Below are positions 1,422-32,010 of a stretch of 64,000 nucleotides of DNA, piece by piece; the first letter of the stretch is position 1; every line of letters begins with the position of its first letter. The notes beneath the pieces are model-generated. The model saw nothing but the letters and a program-made list of their open reading frames with translations. It was not told the origin of the DNA and searched no databases. The stretch is from Alphaproteobacteria bacterium (GTDB lineage: Bacteria; Pseudomonadota; Alphaproteobacteria; Bin95): assembly GCA_963665325.3 (NCBI GenBank), contig CAXXWS020000003.1:288001-352000 (forward strand), in the 5' to 3' direction. The translations under genes and the position numbers were made by a program.

Positions 1422-1621
1422 GGTTTCTTGCGCCTCCCATATGGGAGGAATAAACAGGAAAAGTGGCCATCGCCCGGCTCGTTCCGGCCAATTGTCATGA
1501 GGATCCGGTCGGGCGGAGACGCGAGACCCATGGCTCGGGCGGTCCGGCGGCGGACCGGAGATGCCGCGCGCCCCGGAACCCCCGGCGAAATGTCATGTTT
1601 TGTCATGGGGCGGGGTTGCGG

Positions 1622-2185
1622 TCATGGCTTGTTGCCCGCCGGGGCCCCGCTTCTTGCGCGGTCGAGACAACGGGCGATGGAGTCCTCCGTGCGTCGCCGC
1701 TGCCGCTCGCGCCATGCCCTGTATTCGGGCGTCTTCAGGTCGCCGACGAATCTCCGTCCGCTGACATTGCATTCGAGCAGCCTGTCGTCGCGGCTCCCGT
1801 CCAGCGGGACCGGCCCGACCCGGCGCTCCGGGTCTTCCAGCCATGCCTCGAACCCGGGCGTCTCCTGGCTGCCGACCCAAGCCTCGCCGCAATAGTGGAA
1901 CTCGTATTCGCCGCCGTCATAGTCGGACACCGCCAGGGGCGGCGGCTCCCACGGCTCCTCTTCGGGTTCCGGGGCCGGCTCCGGCTCGGGCATATGCGCG
2001 GCGCTCCAGTCGAGCACGGCGAGGAGTTCGCGCAGATGAGCGAGCCGTGCGCGCCCGGTGCAGTGGCATTCGGCGCGGGCGCGGTCGTCGGGCGGCGGCG
2101 GTTCGGCACCCATGTCCTGGGCATAGGTTGCTGCGAGGGCTTCGGCGGCCGGCACCAGCCTGGGGCGGGGATCGGTTGCGGTCAT
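1622..2185 (-). CDS. Hypothetical protein (187 aa) with Pro/Glu-rich linker, inside the repeat element
   Basis: ATG preceded by GGAG-acgag. Lies downstream of a promoter-like sequence. No family recognised. Confidence 0.55.
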   Translation of the reverse strand: MTATDPRPRLVPAAEALAATYAQDMGAEPPPPDDRARAECHCTGRARLAHLRELLAVLDWSAAHMPEPEPAPEPEEEPWEPPPLAVSDYDGGEYEFHYCGEAWVGSQETPGFEAWLEDPERRVGPVPLDGSRDDRLLECNVSGRRFVGDLKTPEYRAWRERQRRRTEDSIARCLDRARSGAPAGNKP

Positions 2186-2204
2186 CTCGTCTCCTAGCCG
2201 GTCC

Positions 2205-2379
2205 GGGAGCGGCGGGTCCCTTTACCGCGCGCGGTTTGCGCGCGGGTGCGGGCGCCTGTCGGCGCCGGCGCGGTTCGTGCGCCTGATTGCGCGCGCGAGC
2301 CGCAGGGCGCACCTCTCCCGTCTGTATTGCGGGTATTTTTTCGGATCGGAGGGAAGTGGCCCCGGACGCCTCTTCCCTC
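2205..2379 (-). ncRNA. Candidate structured RNA/leader, copy 1
   Basis: Minus-strand hairpins: GAGGGAAG-a-GGC/GTCCGGG loop/GCC-a-CTTCCCTC; GTGCGCCCTG...CAGGCGCAC; GGCGCC-GACA-GGCGCC; CCGCGCGC-AAACC-GCGCGCGG. Equivalent stems occur in copy 2. Confidence 0.45.
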
Positions 2380-2385
2380 AAGGAC

Positions 2386-2412
2386 AGTCTAGCACAGTTT
2401 CTCTCAGGTCAA
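2386..2412 (-). promoter_or_regulatory. Sigma70-like promoter TTGACC-N15-TAGACT
   Basis: Hexamers read directly. The spacer is short (15 bp). It sits at the same position as the copy-2 promoter. Confidence 0.4.
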
Positions 2413-2422
2413 GCCCTATTAG

Positions 2423-2437
2423 GAACAAAAAGCGAAT
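2423..2437 (+). promoter_or_regulatory. Possible alphaproteobacterial LexA box GAAC-N7-GAAT
   Basis: GAAC-AAAAAGC-GAAT, one mismatch to GAAC-N7-GAAC, next to the -35 element. Confidence 0.3.
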
Positions 2438-2492
2438 AATTTCGAATTTTCCGGGATTCGGCCGGACCGCAAATTGCTCTACTCTGGCGCCC

Positions 2493-3182: not shown

Positions 3183-4617
3183 AAGCGAGCGCGCCGGGGT
3201 CGGCTGCCACGGGGCCCGGCGCGGCGGCGACCAGCACCTCGCCCGCGATCGGCCCGAAATCGGCGCGAAAATGCACCGAGCTCTTGAGCGCGAGGATGCG
3301 GCAGTCCGCCGGCTCCACGCCCAGATGGCGGAACATCTCCCGGTCCGCCGCCTGCACCTTGCGGCTCGCCACCGCCACCTGCACGCCGCCCGGAAGCTCC
3401 AGCAGCGCCATAGGCCCTAGCTGCATCCGGTTGCCGCCATAGAAAGGGCCGGTACAGGTGAACGTCCCGTCTCCGAGACGGCGCACCTTGGCATCGGTCT
3501 CGAACGGAGCGTCGCCCGGAATGCCGGAGCGTCCGCCGAGCGCGAGCGCGACCCGGCCGCCCGCACCGGCTTCATGCGCCGCTTCGGCCGCCTCGGCGTC
3601 GATCAGCAGGCCCAACACCGCGCCCTCCGGGCTTCGGGCCGCGAGTGCGCGCAAGAGGCCCGTCGTATCTCCGTTGCCGCCGCCGCCCGGATTGTCGCAA
3701 CTGTCCGCGATGACCGCCGGCCGGCCGGCCCGGCCCGCCCGGTTCGCACGCGCCACCGCTTCTTCGGGGGAGAGGAAATCGGCGGCAAAGCGCCCTCGCG
3801 CCGCAAGCACCTCGTCCGCCAGCGCATCCGCGGCCTCTGCGGCGCCGCGTTCGTCGCCCGCATAGGCAAGCGCCGCCGGCCCGCAATCCGGCGTGTCGGC
3901 AAGCGGGAAGCCTCCCGCAAGAGACACCGAAGCGACCGCGCCCCGTTCCCGCTCGTCGAGGCCCGCATAGAGGCCCTGCGCCGGCTCGATCAGCGTGCAT
4001 TGCGCTGTGAGCGGGATGAGGAAGGAGATCTGCCGGAACGCCTTGGCCGGTCGTCCCTCGGCGAAGATGCGTTCGAGGAGGCGGGCGGTGCGCGCCCCCG
4101 TCTCCGCCATGTCGACATGCGGATAGGTGCGGAACACGACCAGCGCATCCGCCCGGTCCGCCATCAGCGGCGAGACATTGGCGTGGAGATCAAGGCTCGC
4201 GATCAGCGGGATATCCGGTCCGATGACGGCGCGCACGCGGCGCAGCAACTCGCCCTCGCCGTCCTCCAGATGCTCCGCGACCATCGCGCCGTGCAGGTCC
4301 AGATAGACCGCGTCCACCGGCCCGGCGTCCCGCAGCTCGTCCACCATCATGCCGGCGATGCGCTCATAGGCCTCCTCCTCGACCTCCGCCGAGGGGCTGG
4401 CATTGGCCCAGACCAGCGGCGCGAAGCTGCGCCCCGAAGCGCGCGCCGCCTCCAGGAAGCCCGCCATCGGCAGGTTTATGCCGGCCGTGTCGGCGAGAAC
4501 CGCCTCGCCCCGGCAGAGGCCGGGCCAGCCGTCGGCGCGCCGGAACATCTCGAAGCTTGCCTTTGTCGGCGCAAAGGTATTCGTCTCATGGTGAAAACCG
4601 CCGACCGCAATCCGCAT
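3145..4617 (-). CDS. M81 family metallopeptidase (MlrC-like)
   Basis: MRIAVGGFHHETNTF, LDLHGAM, LDLHAN, RTYPHVD, DNPGGG and KSSVHFRA motifs. Confidence 0.92.
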   Translation of the reverse strand: MRIAVGGFHHETNTFAPTKASFEMFRRADGWPGLCRGEAVLADTAGINLPMAGFLEAARASGRSFAPLVWANASPSAEVEEEAYERIAGMMVDELRDAGPVDAVYLDLHGAMVAEHLEDGEGELLRRVRAVIGPDIPLIASLDLHANVSPLMADRADALVVFRTYPHVDMAETGARTARLLERIFAEGRPAKAFRQISFLIPLTAQCTLIEPAQGLYAGLDERERGAVASVSLAGGFPLADTPDCGPAALAYAGDERGAAEAADALADEVLAARGRFAADFLSPEEAVARANRAGRAGRPAVIADSCDNPGGGGNGDTTGLLRALAARSPEGAVLGLLIDAEAAEAAHEAGAGGRVALALGGRSGIPGDAPFETDAKVRRLGDGTFTCTGPFYGGNRMQLGPMALLELPGGVQVAVASRKVQAADREMFRHLGVEPADCRILALKSSVHFRADFGPIAGEVLVAAAPGPVAADPGALAFTRLRPGVAQRP

Positions 4618-12768: not shown

Positions 12769-12796
12769 GGCAGGCGGCTTACTTTCAGCGCACCGC

Positions 12797-13354
12797 CTAT
12801 TCCTTCATACTTTTCGCTTGCTCCCGTAGTCTGTCGATCTCCTCTACCGCCCTTATGGCTTCCTGAACCGGGATATGTCTCTTGAGTTCAACCAATCTCC
12901 GCGCCGCGTTGTCGACAGACAGCTGCAGCCCCTCTTCCTTCTCCTTTATGCGTACGTAAAGCGCCGTGGCCAATTTTTCCAACTCCATTACTCCTTTTGC
13001 TCCAACAGCGTTGGCGGCAAATGCAAGCCTATTCTCATATCTCCCAAGAGTCTTAGGAAACAGCTTCTGAACATTTTCAGCTTGCTCAGTGTTTTCCATA
13101 CTAGGGCCATAAAACCCTCTTGGCTGCAGAGCAATTACCGCATCCGCGCGGAGAGCAGTCAATTCGTCCCTCAGATCAAAAGAAAACGGGCCATGTTTAT
13201 AAAGAATGAATTTATATCCCAATGGCACTTGCGCCAAGGCTTGCAAAATATAGACCGCCTTTTGCAAATGAGTCTCTCCGCGCCAACTTTCCTGCTGCTT
13301 CAACCGGTCTATGAGACGGGTGAGAAGCGCTCCTCTCCTAACTCTGTCCACCAT
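12797..13354 (-). CDS. YwgA/Panacea(SocA)-like protein
   Basis: GETHLQKAVYILQ...LGYKFILYKHGPFSFDL and ELEKLATALY motifs. Overlaps the HD gene end by 17 bp. Low GC. Confidence 0.7.
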   Translation of the reverse strand: MVDRVRRGALLTRLIDRLKQQESWRGETHLQKAVYILQALAQVPLGYKFILYKHGPFSFDLRDELTALRADAVIALQPRGFYGPSMENTEQAENVQKLFPKTLGRYENRLAFAANAVGAKGVMELEKLATALYVRIKEKEEGLQLSVDNAARRLVELKRHIPVQEAIRAVEEIDRLREQAKSMKE

Positions 13355-14654
13355 TCTCCTCCTTCACTGGCTCGATGACTTTGCTGAGATTACCGTCTAA
13401 CCAACCCTTTGCTTCCAGAAAACAAGATCTATCGGCGAACACATAATCAACGGAAACTACCGGCACCTGATTGAGAGCAGTCGAAACAACCAGAGACGAA
13501 ACTACACGATCATCGCGCATCCGAACCGGGAAATCAGGACCTCCTCCCTTTTGATTGTATCTATCGTGGCGAAATTTGTGATCGCCAAATTCTTCCTTTA
13601 GTGCTCGATAAACTTGTTCACCCGCTTCCTGATTTATCGCTACATCTGCCGGATTTCTTTGATAAATCACCTTGAAATGCTTGCGTCGAACTAAGCGTTT
13701 CGCATGCAAATACCCTTTTGCGCATTTGTTGATTGATTGATTCCACAAAGCAGAAATTATTGTTTCATCCGTTAAAGCGATATGCTTGTCAAGATCAATT
13801 GAAAACACACCATTATCGAGCCACTGTTTTAGAAAATCCATTAGATGAATATCGTAAATCCTGCGTACGGGATGAAAATAAACTTGGGAATACATAAAGT
13901 ATCGAGCAAGCATAAGGGCCTCAGCTGACTGCAAACCACCTTCTTCCATACCAAGAGAAGGTTCACCTGTATCAGGTGATTGCAAAATACGCAACGTATC
14001 TATCAATCTATAATGGTCAAATTTTCCGTATGCAACTCCTGCATGATATGAATCTCTAAGCAGATAATCCATGCGGTCAACGCCAAAAGCATCTCCAACA
14101 ATAATTTCGGACAAAATTGATTCCCAGTCTGAAAATACCAGATCGTCTGCCTTTTGAGGCCCTATAGCGAGTTTCACTATATCTTCGCTGCGTAGCGGCG
14201 GTGTAACTGACTTCCAAATCTCTTCCATTTCGCGGCTGGAAATAAGCTCTCGTGTTAATCGTTCGTGATCCCAACCTTCGGGCAAGAGCTCTTTCTCGGC
14301 GGCATGAGAGAACGGCAAATGTCCTATATCGTGACAAAGGGCTGCCATTCGGATGATTCGTTTCCAATAAGCACATGCGTCTGGTCGTGAAATATGTTCC
14401 AGTCGACTCTTGATTGCTTCAGAGACGTTATCTGGGTTTGTGACGACATCGAACACCCGGCCGGCAAGGTCCATAACACCGAGGGAATGCTCAAACCGGC
14501 GATGTGTCGCGCCCGGATAAACCAGATAGGTCGTTGCAAGCTGGTGAACATGCCGCAGCCGTTGAAACGGGCGGGAGTCCAGCACCTTTCGTTCATCACC
14601 ATCCATGCGGATGAATATATGGATGGGGTCCCTGATTTCATGTATGTGCTGCAT
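13338..14654 (-). CDS. SAMHD1/YwfO-like HD-domain phosphohydrolase (putative dNTP triphosphohydrolase)
   Basis: IRDPIH, FQRLRHVHQL, YPGATHRRFEHSLGV, AALCHDIGHLPFSH, WDHE, VDRMDYLLRD, MYSQVYFH. ATG 14654 chosen over the ORF-track start. Confidence 0.92.
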   Translation of the reverse strand: MQHIHEIRDPIHIFIRMDGDERKVLDSRPFQRLRHVHQLATTYLVYPGATHRRFEHSLGVMDLAGRVFDVVTNPDNVSEAIKSRLEHISRPDACAYWKRIIRMAALCHDIGHLPFSHAAEKELLPEGWDHERLTRELISSREMEEIWKSVTPPLRSEDIVKLAIGPQKADDLVFSDWESILSEIIVGDAFGVDRMDYLLRDSYHAGVAYGKFDHYRLIDTLRILQSPDTGEPSLGMEEGGLQSAEALMLARYFMYSQVYFHPVRRIYDIHLMDFLKQWLDNGVFSIDLDKHIALTDETIISALWNQSINKCAKGYLHAKRLVRRKHFKVIYQRNPADVAINQEAGEQVYRALKEEFGDHKFRHDRYNQKGGGPDFPVRMRDDRVVSSLVVSTALNQVPVVSVDYVFADRSCFLEAKGWLDGNLSKVIEPVKEENGGQS

Positions 14655-14798
14655 CGGCGGAGCATGGCCGGGGGCGGGCAGGGCATTGGATTGAGCCGGC
14701 ACACTCGATCCAAGAAGGATGTTGAAGGGTTTCGGACGCGACCGCAAGACGGGCACGTGCCTTGAACGGCATGCGAAACACCGTTACCAGACACCCCC

Positions 14799-29002: not shown

Positions 29003-29112
29003 GCCGTTACCCAAAGTCGTCGCCCCCCGCACACCCCGGAAGGCGTCATGATATGTCATGTTTTGTCATGAGGCCCGCCGGAAATGTCATGTTTGGAGAT
29101 TACAAAGATGAC

Positions 29113-29141
29113 TTGGCATTTTCTACCGGACTCCCTATATT
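29113..29141 (+). promoter_or_regulatory. Transposase promoter TTGGCA-N17-TATATT overlapping the left IR
   Basis: Hexamers and 17-bp spacer read directly, 27 bp upstream of the transposase ATG. Confidence 0.6.
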
Positions 29142-29167
29142 CCAAGGTGTTGAAGGGGAGAGCAGTC

Positions 29168-30145
29168 ATGGCGAAGAGCGCACCCGGAAAGGCCCACCGC
29201 GAAGGACTCACCATCGTCGAGTTGATGGATATGTTCCCGACCGAGGAAGCCGCGTCGGACTGGTTCGAGTCGGTGATTTGGCCGGACGGTCGGCACTGTC
29301 CGAAATGCGGTTGTGCGGAGACGCGCGAGGTTCCGAACGCGAAACCGATGCCTTACTGGTGCAAGGACTGTCGATCTTACTTCTCGGTGAAGACCGGAAC
29401 CGCCATGCAGCGGTCGAAAATCCCGCTCCGCAAGTGGGCAATCGCCATCTATCTCTGCCTTACTTCGCTCAAGTCGGTTTCGTCGATGAAGCTGCAACGC
29501 GACATCGGAGTTTCGCAGCCGACCGCATGGTTCATGCTTCACCGCATCCGGCAGGCATGGGCGGTTGACGACGACGACCAGTTTGACGGCCCTGTAGAGG
29601 TCGATGAGAGTTACTTCGGCGGTCGCCAAGCGAACATGCCGAAGGCAAAGCGCAAGACGCTCGCGGGCGGTGGCACGGCCCATATGACGGCAGTTAGCGG
29701 CGCGAAGGATCGCGACAGCAACGAAGTCCGGGCGGAAGTCATAACCGATACGACCAAGCCGACCTTGCAGGGTATTGTGCGCGAGCATGTCGAGCCCGGC
29801 GCGGCCGTCTATACCGACGAGCACCGCAGCTATGTCGGACTCGATGCGGATTTTGACCATGGAACGGTCAATCATCGCGTTGGCGAGTATGTGGACGGCA
29901 TGATCCACACCAACGGCATGGTGAGCTTCTGGGCCATGCTCAAGCGGGCACACAAGGGCACCTTCCACAAGATCAGCCCGAAACATCTTGAGCGTTATGT
30001 CGATGACTTTGCGGGCAAGCATAATCACTGCGAATCAGGCACCCTTGCCCAAATGCGGGATACCGTCGCCCGGCTCGTCGGCCGCCGGCTTCTCTACCGC
30101 GACCTTATCGCGGACAACGGGCTTTCGTCGGGTTCCGGGGCGTAG
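29168..30145 (+). CDS. IS1595 family transposase (third catalytic residue apparently Glu>Val)
   Basis: Zn ribbon CPKC...CKDC, SKIPLRKW, HTH TAWFMLHRIR, VEVDESYFGG, YTDE, HTNGMVSFWAMLKR. Confidence 0.95.
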   Translation: MAKSAPGKAHREGLTIVELMDMFPTEEAASDWFESVIWPDGRHCPKCGCAETREVPNAKPMPYWCKDCRSYFSVKTGTAMQRSKIPLRKWAIAIYLCLTSLKSVSSMKLQRDIGVSQPTAWFMLHRIRQAWAVDDDDQFDGPVEVDESYFGGRQANMPKAKRKTLAGGGTAHMTAVSGAKDRDSNEVRAEVITDTTKPTLQGIVREHVEPGAAVYTDEHRSYVGLDADFDHGTVNHRVGEYVDGMIHTNGMVSFWAMLKRAHKGTFHKISPKHLERYVDDFAGKHNHCESGTLAQMRDTVARLVGRRLLYRDLIADNGLSSGSGA

Positions 30146-30241
30146 CGGCTCCGTCCTACGAAATAGCGCCTTCGCCAGCGTCTCCGGCGTAGCGCCCACC
30201 AAGTCGCGGACCGGGTCCAGTATCGGAACACCTTTCGTCAT
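30035..30241 (-). CDS. Small hypothetical protein (68 aa) convergently overlapping the transposase 3' end
   Basis: GGAGG six nt before the ATG. Reads MTKGVPILDPVRDLVGATPETLAKALFRR. Confidence 0.55.
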   Translation of the reverse strand: MTKGVPILDPVRDLVGATPETLAKALFRRTEPLRPGTRRKPVVRDKVAVEKPAADEPGDGIPHLGKGA

Positions 30242-30462
30242 TTTCAGCCTCCGTTGACTCTCTGCGTTGATTCGGACGACCATCCTTCTTTCACCAATTC
30301 AAGCGCCCCGCTCTGTCGGGTCGCCTGCTGAATACAACAGCCTGACCCGGCAAGGGGGTTGCTCCCCGCGCTTGGCGAATAGGCGGGACTCTCCATTCGC
30401 TTGGATTGGTGCAACGGCCCGACGCCAGCCGGCGGCCGGGAACGAGCGGAAGGGCGATCCCG

Positions 30463-30948
30463 ATGAAGAAGCTCGTTGCGGCCTGCGCCGCAGCCATCAC
30501 CATTTATTCGGCACAGGGCCAAGCCCAGACGATCTCCAAGGACGAATATCGGGACAAGGTCCTCGTCCTGTTCGAGGAGTTCCTGCAAATGAAGACGGAT
30601 GGCGTCTTCCTGGACCAAGCGACGATCAAGGCGCTCGGACGAAACTTCAAATTCCCGAACGCCATCCGAGGCAACAATCCCCCCGGCGGGTGGTTTGCCC
30701 GCCCACCTGGTAGCGATTGGGTCAAGCGCGTCGAGGCCCTCGATGACACCGGTCACAAGTTCGTTTGCTTCGACATTCCGGCGCTGCCCAGCGAGTCGGG
30801 GGTCTGCGGTTTCGACTTGGTGTCGCTCCACACCGGTATTCTCGATCAAGGAGCGGTCAGCTTTCTCGATGCGCTTGCAGCGAAGTTCTGGCTCGCCACC
30901 ATCTGCCACCGGACCCCGGCAGCGTGCGAGCGTTACATCGACGACTAA
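30463..30948 (+). CDS. Hypothetical secreted protein (IS passenger)
   Basis: Signal peptide MKKLVAACAAAITIYSAQGQA. Four Cys in the mature part. Confidence 0.7.
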   Translation: MKKLVAACAAAITIYSAQGQAQTISKDEYRDKVLVLFEEFLQMKTDGVFLDQATIKALGRNFKFPNAIRGNNPPGGWFARPPGSDWVKRVEALDDTGHKFVCFDIPALPSESGVCGFDLVSLHTGILDQGAVSFLDALAAKFWLATICHRTPAACERYIDD

Positions 30949-31004
30949 CGCGCCGACATGTTCACCAAGCTCAATGCGGCCATCGACTGCGTGGACAAGC
31001 AGCA

Positions 31005-31487
31005 TTAGCTGCTACCCGAGCGGAGGAAGGGCGGGAGTTCTCGGCCCGCCGCCTTCGCGTATTGGACCAAGGCGGCCTTGGTGAATTGATCGTTCGCCGG
31101 GTCGGCGCCGAGCAAGAACAGCATTGCGTGGTAGGGATCACCGCTCCGGTGTTCCAGCTTCCGCTGCTTTACCGCCAGCCGTAGACGGGCCAACTCTTCC
31201 TGCACGACCGGCCGTTGCAACGAGGACTCGGTTGGCGGCAGGCCATGCCACATGCAGGCGGCGTATTTGAGCGGTAGAACATTGAATTCCTGCCAGTCCA
31301 TCGTGGCAGCCGACTGCCGTTTCCCTGAACGCAATTTGAGCCACGTCGCCCGTATTTCGTCTCGATAGACGTACGGCAGGGCTATGCCACTGATTACGGT
31401 GACGGCGACCCAAGCCCAGAGCGGAAACAGGGCAACACTCACGGATTCTGCTCCGAGAATGAAGACTGCTGGAAGCCACCGGCGCAT
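31005..31487 (-). CDS. Hypothetical membrane protein (IS passenger)
   Basis: Two N-terminal hydrophobic segments followed by a soluble domain. Starts 33 bp inside the right IR. Confidence 0.6.
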   Translation of the reverse strand: MRRWLPAVFILGAESVSVALFPLWAWVAVTVISGIALPYVYRDEIRATWLKLRSGKRQSAATMDWQEFNVLPLKYAACMWHGLPPTESSLQRPVVQEELARLRLAVKQRKLEHRSGDPYHAMLFLLGADPANDQFTKAALVQYAKAAGRELPPFLRSGSS

Positions 31488-31694
31488 CCCGTAACGCTGT
31501 CCGGATTCACGCCGTGCGTCAAGTCATCTTTGTAATCCCCTCATGTTTTGTCATGGTCCGCCGCGCCTCCCGTCCCGCCGCTGCCCGTCCGTATCCCGCA
31601 TGCCGTTCCTCCATCCTGTTTCGCTCCACTCCGTTCCCGCCGCCGCGCCGAACATTGCAGATGGCGGCGTTGACGCCGCCGCCGGCCCCTCCGT

Positions 31695-31890
31695 GCGGCG
31701 GACCCTGTTTCGCGCGTATCGCGCGCGGCCGGGCGCGCCCGTTAGCGCCGGCGCGGTTCGCGCGCCTGATTGCCCGCATGCGCCCGCACGCGCGAGACGG
31801 GCGCAGGGCGCACCCCTCCCCCTTGCTCCCTCGGGGCCTTTTCTCGCACCATCGCAACTCGAAGCGGCCTCCGGACAACCGCCTCCTCCC
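31695..31890 (-). ncRNA. Candidate structured RNA/leader, copy 2
   Basis: Minus strand: GAGGCGGTT/GTCCGGA loop/GGCCGCTTC; GTGCGCCCTG...CAGGCGCGC; GCGCT-AACG-GGCGC; CGCGC-GATAC-GCGCG. Confidence 0.45.
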
Positions 31891-31894
31891 ACTC

Positions 31895-31923
31895 CATCTA
31901 AGGCGCGGTGATGCAGATTTCAA
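31895..31923 (-). promoter_or_regulatory. Sigma70-like promoter TTGAAA-N17-TAGATG
   Basis: Read directly, immediately upstream of the first conserved hairpin. Confidence 0.45.
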
Positions 31924-32010
31924 CTCTTTTCTAGGAATTAAGACAAATTAACACGAACAAACCATAATATCCAACCACGGCCGAGCGGCCGTTGAACCCG
32001 TCTCGCCCTC

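Follow-up and report, generated by a model that had tools for sequence, protein, structure and literature searches.

The 64,000-nucleotide window analysed here, positions 288,001 to 352,000 of contig CAXXWS020000003.1 from an alphaproteobacterial genome assembly, contains at 1564–2450 on the minus strand one full copy of a dispersed repeat of about 0.9 kb. Related copies were found at 34 or more loci in at least 8 alphaproteobacterial metagenome-assembled genomes (MAGs). The copy in the window runs from an AT-rich sigma70-like promoter through a structured leader of about 200 nt and a 187-aa open reading frame (ORF) to a 3' array of short direct repeats. We hold with moderate confidence that the repeat is a non-autonomous selfish cassette, spread and homogenised by DNA recombination, with its arrays serving as phased protein-binding or recombination sites. 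Its mobility is suggested by the edges of the repeat, one empty site and differences in copy number. If this is right, an uncultured alphaproteobacterial clade carries a self-expressing repeat that standard annotation turns into scattered "hypothetical proteins". The repeat combines a selected orphan protein, a leader that is both conserved and structured, and a site of phased direct repeats. It would be a compact system in which to look for a new activity in DNA binding or recombination, and a clear case of a dispersed gene homogenised within a genome.

A repeat family with fixed order and sharp edges

A genome scan found at least 34 loci, with at least 12, 4, 2, 2, 4, 5, 3 and 2 in the respective MAGs and at least 12 on one 3.99-Mb contig. 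The copies are always intergenic. Ten copies from the 3.99-Mb contig have column identities of about 90–98% over about 935 bp, and outside this unit identity falls on both sides to about 40% within a few bases. With its many copies, shared edges and unrelated flanks, this is a dispersed repeat family. Twelve of the loci are cut by a contig end at or near the element, as expected because the repeat breaks MAG assemblies.

The order of parts is constant. A profile of the leader core matches 30 of the 34 fetched loci, every time on the strand of the ORF, and arrays are present in 28; in all 25 loci that have both, leader and array share a strand and the leader is the upstream one. Where one feature is missing, the locus is a fragment or is cut by a contig end. 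An earlier note on the window, made from its sequence, had proposed a dispersed family of fixed order and orientation that standard annotation would miss, and had named failure of the motifs to co-occur in this way as what would refute it; the 25 loci agree with the proposal without exception.

Gene calls within the loci are heuristic, 96 proteins were scanned among 147 called neighbours, and several of the statements on short motifs rest on alignments read by eye. The scanned neighbours are mostly ordinary metabolic enzymes, and a few have no family. Three neighbours in two loci are of mobile type: a transposase fragment in L014, and an insertion sequence (IS) and a phage-type integrase in L034. 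A search of plasmid DNA with the element and a tblastn search of phages and plasmids with its protein gave no match.

The copy in the window, referred to as copy 1, lies in DNA of 68% G+C between a rhomboid protease gene upstream and a gene for a serine beta-lactamase-fold hydrolase downstream. Its parts, with the basis for each, are as follows.

2386–2460, minus strand: AT-rich upstream region and sigma70-like promoter (conservation among aligned copies)
2186–2385, minus strand: structured 5' leader (leader alignments, covariation in hairpin H1, nhmmer)
1622–2185, minus strand: 187-aa ORF P0001, orphan family (relatives, alignment, AlphaFold2 model, codon-position differences)
1591–1625, minus strand: 3' array (two CATGAC units 10 bp apart at 1591–1607, and an ATGAC unit at 1620–1625)
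1564–1578, minus strand: flank motif after the array (its CCGGAA portion is seen again after arrays elsewhere)

The −35 hexamer is the complement of 2407–2412 and the −10-like hexamer that of 2386–2391, with a spacer of 15 nt. The leader includes hairpin H1 at 2349–2379, also recovered in an inverted-repeat search, and a conserved core at 2260–2326. A Shine-Dalgarno GGAG (complement of 2191–2194) stands 6 nt ahead of the start codon. The 187-aa ORF of the earlier note is present, and its stop codon sits within the ATGAC unit of the array.

The first bases of the ORF (2185 down to 2161) are repeated just before the array, from 1625 down to 1606, with 20 of 20 positions identical across a 5-nt gap; without the gap the match is an 84% direct repeat (1607–1625 and 2167–2185). 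Through this repeat, the C-terminal tail of the protein echoes the N-terminus in some copies. It could be left over from an intermediate, whether tandem or circular, or reflect the remains of an array at the start codon. A 20-nt inverted pair (1540–1559 and 2450–2469, 75% complementary) brackets copy 1 just beyond its two ends. It was considered as a terminal repeat and is probably due to chance in GC-rich DNA, since it has no counterpart in L005.

A second copy interrupted by an insertion sequence

The earlier note had reported two loci sharing ordered parts on the minus strand, and the array core, the leader block and blastn all bear this out. When 1300–2700 was compared with the whole window by blastn, only one other region, copy 2, was matched above noise. 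Segment 2209–2301 matches 31695–31784 (76% over 93 nt, E=7e-13) and 1564–1611 matches 29027–29074 (77% over 48 nt, E=1e-4). A 29-nt leader block, identical at 28 positions, occurs at 2262–2290 and 31745–31773 and nowhere else in the window, with none expected by chance. Copy 2 comprises 29027–29094 and 31541–31960 and has kept the promoter, leader and arrays.

31896–31960, minus strand: promoter region (−35 hexamer, complement of 31918–31923; −10-like hexamer, complement of 31896–31901; spacer 16 nt)
31700–31895, minus strand: leader, the most diverged of the 20 compared (54–64% identity)
31557–31699, minus strand: middle without ORF, about 140 nt, holding a short GC-rich dispersed repeat
31541–31556, minus strand: upstream half of an array split by an IS (array core match, IS ends)
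29095–31540, plus strand: IS1595-family insertion sequence interrupting copy 2 and not part of the element (DDE_Tnp_IS1595 and Zn_ribbon_IS1595 domains)
29027–29094, minus strand: flank motif (29027–29041, the counterpart of that at 1564–1578), three-unit array (29045–29070) and downstream half of the split array (29080–29094)

No match to the 187-aa ORF was found in the middle of copy 2. The GC-rich repeat there (about 31640–31690) also occurs, on reading, in L014 and L016. The leader contains an insertion common to the L021/L023 subfamily. Copy 2 is a derivative of another subfamily in which the ORF is gone and a short repeat resembling repetitive extragenic palindromic (REP) sequences stands in its place. 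Its two arrays are about 31 nt apart, as in L011, L015 and L018, and it points toward an acyl-CoA dehydrogenase gene that starts about 45 nt beyond them.

The IS1595-family insertion is 2,446 bp long, has 21-nt inverted repeats (29095–29115 and 31520–31540) and an 8-bp duplication (29087–29094 and 31541–31548), and splits one of the two arrays. Excising it with one duplicate re-forms the 22-nt terminal motif, so that the 22 of 22 identity claimed earlier for the IS-free sequence holds. The insertion carries two passenger ORFs, at 30406–30948 (plus strand) and 31005–31487 (minus strand), with no Pfam or PADLOC match.

The orphan protein

The earlier note took the ORF to be the variable middle of the element. 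Instead, it belongs to one conserved protein family, and copy 2 is an ORF-less derivative. At E<=0.001 the 187-aa protein has 126 relatives; most are 190–215 aa long, and several share the same long contigs. When 1.84 billion cluster representatives were searched by profile, only 100 matched, 48 of them at E<=1e-10 and most of them short. Those inspected, a small number, proved to be frameshifted copies or fragments belonging to this family, with no meaningful known domain. No longer fused forms of the protein were found, which is weak evidence. Neither Pfam, NCBIfam nor PADLOC matched the protein, and PHROGs gave weak matches only, to families of unknown function (best E=2e-4). The best Foldseek hit in the PDB had E=0.87, which is no fold match, a profile search of PDB sequences gave no matches, and the best ESM Atlas score, 0.86, was under the useful range. 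The ORF defines a genuine lineage-restricted orphan family.

The alignment shows a conserved N-terminal domain, a variable acidic, proline-rich linker with in-frame length changes, and two repeats of about 30 aa, which are also visible in the DNA (1711–1747 and 1840–1876). One short subfamily has a single repeat and a tail rich in Lys, Arg and Glu. The AlphaFold2 model (pLDDT 74, pTM 0.31) has two N-terminal helices followed by two modules, each a beta-hairpin plus a helix. Differences at the first, second and third codon positions in nine copies were.124/.117/.234 in the N-terminal domain,.20/.31/.45 in the linker and.286/.303/.314 in the C-terminal part. The excess at third positions places the N-terminal domain under protein-level constraint, of which the rest of the protein shows little or none.

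The orphan is the only protein that the element always carries, its N-terminal domain is conserved, and no other recombinase recurs among the scanned neighbours. It could therefore be thought a novel type of transposase or recombinase with the arrays as its recognition sites, which would make the element autonomous, and a possible degenerate array unit at the 5' edge of some copies (a weak observation, made by eye) together with the 3' arrays would give directly repeated ends. This is quite improbable. The database and structure searches above gave no similarity to a catalytic fold, the 11 invariant columns of the protein alignment include no invariant Ser, Tyr or acidic triad that stands out, the model is mostly helices and two small hairpins, and the C-terminal half evolves almost neutrally.

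Promoter and leader

The TTGA core of the −35 hexamer is invariant in all 20 aligned copies, and the T-rich block upstream of it is nearly so. The promoter motifs given in the earlier note are present, TCAA-N7-TAGGAA at 2409–2425 in copy 1 and TCAA-N8-TAGGAA at 31920–31937 in copy 2. A strict sigma70 scan of 1400–2600 called no promoter because the hexamers of copy 1 are 15 nt apart, and the assignment accordingly rests on conservation. In the 10 copies from one genome, the 5' edge of the repeat falls in the promoter region. LexA-type and CtrA-type operators were considered in the AT-rich upstream region and dropped, as the candidate words were not, by eye, conserved across copies.

The 20 leaders are 54–94% identical in pairs and have an invariant core and the −35 core in common. 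With nhmmer, the leader core was matched in copy 1 at E=1e-17 and in copy 2 (31742–31825) at E=1e-12. RNAalifold predicted 28 pairs on the leader alignment. Hairpin H1, which directly follows the promoter, is 93% paired, and three of its pairs are changed on both sides; sliding the partner arm as a control reduced pairing to 49–62%. H1 has 17 double-change cells, against 7.2 +/- 2.7 in shuffles (none of 500 reached 17), a covariation test that carries the tool's caveat on related sequences. A short stem before the purine-rich leader core seems, by eye, to covary as well. A second conserved hairpin was not counted, as two subfamilies fold differently there and gave no in-register alignment. On the plus strand, 2317–2333 forms a terminator-like hairpin with a T-run, of which 1.1 were expected by chance in 1400–2600; it is the antisense of the stem that precedes the leader core.

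The earlier suggestion of an RNA-associated element is sustained as far as the one covarying leader hairpin goes. Rfam 15 at gathering scores matched nothing in the whole window, permissive E-value thresholds gave only chance-level matches in both copies (E>=0.06), and no RNA-guided enzyme was found among the scanned ORFs of the window or the scanned neighbours. The extended conserved core of the leader, with one covarying hairpin or more right after a strong promoter, would suit a guide or bridge-type RNA, and the leader is kept in the ORF-less derivatives copy 2 and L034; such an RNA would serve a recombinase or nuclease encoded elsewhere. We consider this very improbable, given the Rfam results, a Shine-Dalgarno site and start codon directly after the leader, as in an ordinary 5' untranslated region, and a copy-1 leader with no stretch, by eye, complementary to the array. 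Genes of IS110, TnpB or IscB type were likewise missing from the scanned ORFs and neighbours. Copying through RNA was rejected, since the repeat includes the promoter upstream of the transcript, and the copying is read as DNA-level for that reason.

The CATGAC arrays

The arrays, which set the element apart more than any other part does, consist of 2–4 CATGAC units at a strict 10-bp period with variable 4-bp spacers, and in other genomes, too, the repeat unit closes with this array. A 17-nt array core occurs in the window at 1591–1607 and 29054–29070, with a copy at two mismatches at 31539–31555; none of 100 shuffles gave any match. There are 43 array clusters in 353,730 bases (loci and window together), where a composition-based estimate gives about 0.03 by chance. 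All but one have the orientation of the neighbouring element, the exception being at 4429 on the minus strand of L003.

Many relatives of the protein end in one of two C-terminal peptides, which are the same array DNA read in two frames; the array is therefore conserved as nucleic acid and not as protein. As a result of the 10-bp period and the variable 4-bp spacers, three units place TGA and ATG in all three frames, which is noted here as a property of the sequence.

Further arrays lie 0.6–3.4 kb downstream of the cassette, where they follow conserved contexts that are short but of another kind. A second array-bearing unit, without an ORF, consists of about 48 conserved nt, with a small palindrome in some copies, followed by 2–3 CATGAC units. 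It occurs at L002 6187, L003 5731 and 4429 (minus strand), L004 6347, L005 6322, L006 4579, L008 6614, L014 6453 and L016 6321. The cassette of L003 has one such unit on either side, the two being inverted and 83% identical over 92 nt. Other arrays without an ORF lie directly after a host gene (L001 8394) and at L013 8184. In L002, a unit of about 570 bp with its own array lies between the cassette array and a flank that, in L006, abuts the cassette array. This is the arrangement that exchange or stacking at the level of the site would produce.

The position of the arrays at the 3' edge and behind other units, their helical phase and the two-module protein suggest that they are binding sites for a protein used in recombination or control. 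A more specific idea is that they are the recombination sites of a cassette system, with modules (promoter and leader, ORF, small non-coding units) inserted, stacked and exchanged at the phased direct repeats by the element's own two-repeat protein or by an unrecognised recombinase. This is rather unlikely. If true, it would be a mobile system resembling integrons or accretion at att sites, built on a novel type of site and lacking any known enzyme.

The gene downstream of the array is co-oriented with it in 29 of the 40 cases with a called gene (heuristic gene caller). In a mobile regulatory module, it would be the promoter and leader, the array or both in front of host genes that are selected, as a reused promoter or as a regulon operator to which a host factor of the response-regulator type binds, with the ORF as a passenger. 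Copy 2, which lacks the ORF, has kept promoter, leader and arrays close to the acyl-CoA dehydrogenase gene, and ORF-less arrays stand in front of host genes elsewhere; promoter reuse is documented in prokaryotes (PMC3575422). This explanation is nonetheless improbable. In the other 11 cases the array points at a next gene that lies on the opposite strand or turns its 3' end toward it, which also weakens the idea, tried and set aside, of arrays as strict promoter elements of downstream genes. The functions of the scanned neighbours have no common theme, and the ORF is still open in most diverged copies. The Pho box, the operator of PhoB, is made of half-site direct repeats at an 11-bp period; the array units resemble the half-site, but their period is 10 bp in the clusters listed.

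Insertion sites, homogenisation and decay

One site is filled in one genome and empty in another. The flanks of L012 (3137–4338 and 5701–8499) match L005 (1–1202 and 1276–4074) at 88–89%. Between them L012 has 1.36 kb, consisting of other repeats, the cassette, an array and about 95 nt more, where L005 has 73 bp without an array (about 1203–1275). L021 has the same right junction as L012. At further sites two or three genomes have a copy (L008/L018/L031, L007/L029 and L009/L022).

Copies resemble each other by genome and not by site. Ten copies on one contig (L002–L010 and L016) are 87–99% identical, and L001 is 78–82% identical to these. Between genomes, copies that share a site are 72% (L008 and L018), 72% (L007 and L029), 78% (L009 and L022) and 61% (L012 and L021) identical, with flanks that are 79–92% identical. 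These identities require gene conversion or repeated replacement.

Decayed copies are common. L016 is frameshifted, as are many database relatives, others of which are truncated. In L034 an internal deletion joins codon ~41 to the array and keeps both ends. L028 has its promoter joined to codon ~35 and retains the last unit with its flank. The ends are thus retained in L034, L028 and copy 2 of the window. Insertion sequences lie in or beside cassettes at L028 5165–5760 (a fragment of an IS4-like transposase, inside the cassette) and L034 5358–8626 (a DDE_Tnp_1 transposase, then an integrase of phage type that has an arm-binding domain). Along with the IS1595-family insertion in the window, they suggest that cassettes are frequent landing sites for IS.

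These results have to be set against a host multigene family, in which a DNA-binding regulator or nucleoid-type protein of about 200 aa, with the arrays as its operators, was multiplied by duplication and gene conversion without transposon-type mobility. We consider this unlikely. It would account for the purifying selection on the N-terminal domain, for the conservation of promoter, Shine-Dalgarno site and start codon in 19–20 aligned copies, and for orthologous sites that are occupied in different species. Clustering by genome is a classic signature of gene conversion, and two protein repeats with DNA repeats phased at 10 bp suggest a protein and its site. It fits less well with a copy number ranging from 2 to at least 12 among related genomes, with the many frameshifted, truncated or deleted copies, or with a C-terminal half that has no third-position excess. 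The sharp unit takes in the promoter and the 3' array and lies amid other small repeats and IS insertions, and an empty orthologous site exists in at least one case. A selfish cassette is preferred to a plain gene family on the strength of the sharp edges, the variation in copy number, the decay, and the site that is filled in one genome and empty in another.

Several observations count against a selfish cassette. No movement was observed, and the mobility that the earlier note had proposed is read from the edges of the repeat, one empty site and differences in copy number. A single clean insertion cannot be reconstructed at the empty site, as the filled site holds several repeats. Since the same sites are filled in different species, the insertions would be old or re-targeted, and mobility may be very low. 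By eye, no repeated flank word that would mark a target duplication was seen in 10 aligned copies of one genome; no terminal inverted repeat is common to copy 1 and L005, which have only weak GC-rich pairs. The ORF of the element contains no transposase domain, and no recombinase is encoded in the element or recurs among the scanned neighbours outside the cases in L034 and L014. In these respects the earlier note, which had seen no transposase, terminal inverted repeats or target duplication, was right. The arrays that lack an ORF unit may have a function of their own. Selection on the N-terminal domain and the conserved promoter and Shine-Dalgarno site fit a host gene family equally well, and with the long-held sites they keep that explanation alive.

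Each full copy of the cassette is a self-contained expression unit, with a strong housekeeping-type promoter, a folded leader of 200–290 nt, a Shine-Dalgarno site and an orphan protein of about 200 aa. Spread and homogenisation would proceed by recombination of DNA and not through RNA. The arrays would be same-face protein-binding sites serving in recombination or recognition, and the likeliest protein to bind them would be the two-repeat protein of the cassette itself or a recombinase whose gene lies elsewhere. As a side effect, a promoter and an array would be placed beside host genes, as in copy 2 upstream of the acyl-CoA dehydrogenase gene; strong promoters next to host metabolic genes matter when these genomes are read.

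Comparison with known systems

In how it works, the locus comes closest to a non-autonomous element or a cassette system, but it fails the tests for an IS or a miniature inverted-repeat transposable element (MITE) and for an integron cassette. Like MITEs and other non-autonomous IS derivatives, the copies are dispersed between genes, have sharp edges and no internal transposase, give rise to deletion derivatives that keep the ends, and break assemblies. Unlike them, they have no common terminal inverted repeat (in the two copies examined) and no visible target duplication; at about 0.9 kb they exceed a typical MITE, and they contain a complete expressed gene together with the promoter for it. 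In the loci and the window, no parent IS that shares these ends turned up.

Integron cassettes and integrase-less attC clusters are similar in their units of 0.6–1 kb, mostly orphan or non-coding, co-oriented and sometimes in tandem in one intergenic region. Each unit here also ends in the same short sequence resembling a recombination site (L002, L005, L008, L016, L020–L027). This end is, however, a direct-repeat array and not the imperfect palindrome of attC, the main cassette has its own promoter, and the copies are scattered over the chromosome and not gathered on one platform. No integron integrase was found among the scanned neighbours, where the sole tyrosine recombinase is the phage-type integrase of L034.

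Helically phased short direct repeats, and a small protein with what may be duplicated DNA-binding modules, recall the operators of MraZ, the plasmid omega repressor and MetJ, small regulators that bind cooperatively to operator arrays. The orphan protein differs in having no Pfam, NCBIfam, PDB-profile or Foldseek match.

REP sequences, their paired forms (REPINs) and the intergenic mosaic elements of rhizobia are short intergenic repeats that form populations within a genome; the persistence of REPINs is discussed in PMC8049555. The loci here are likewise mosaics, with repeats in both orientations, but the known elements are palindromic, non-coding and tens to ~200 nt long, whereas here there is a whole gene and the key repeat is direct. 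Near-identical regions bearing a promoter in front of unrelated genes are described as reused or "mobile" promoters (PMC3575422). Copy 2 is of this kind, but the promoter here usually moves as a unit with leader, ORF and terminal array. According to PMC4679880, sets of the heptamer TAACTGA in Beggiatoaceae and cyanobacteria form arrays of 2–6 short direct repeats, mostly intergenic near start codons and with a patchy phylogeny. The arrays here differ from what is described there in their 10-bp period, 6-bp core and variable 4-bp spacer in place of a contiguous heptamer, and in marking a 3' edge. A limited search of the literature on intergenic mosaic elements, hexamers with direct repeats, promoter reuse and concerted evolution met no description of the element, which cannot show that it is unpublished.

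Other repeats and a possible acquired islet

The intergenic regions around the cassettes are mosaics of several small repeats. One is the short GC-rich repeat of copy 2, found in both orientations (window about 31640–31690, L014 6100–6160, L016 5680–5740 and 5960–6000). Another is a Gly-rich palindrome-like word in L013, L014 and L016.

Away from the cassettes, a stretch of about 2 kb in the window (12772–14758) is absent from L004, which is otherwise syntenic (87–88% identity on both sides). One of its ORFs encodes a 472-aa HD-domain protein that weakly matches a defence dGTPase model; the other, of 185 aa, has a DarG-like match that is likewise weak. Both ORFs fail a filter for native-looking genes based on third-position G+C, and the stretch may therefore be an acquired islet.

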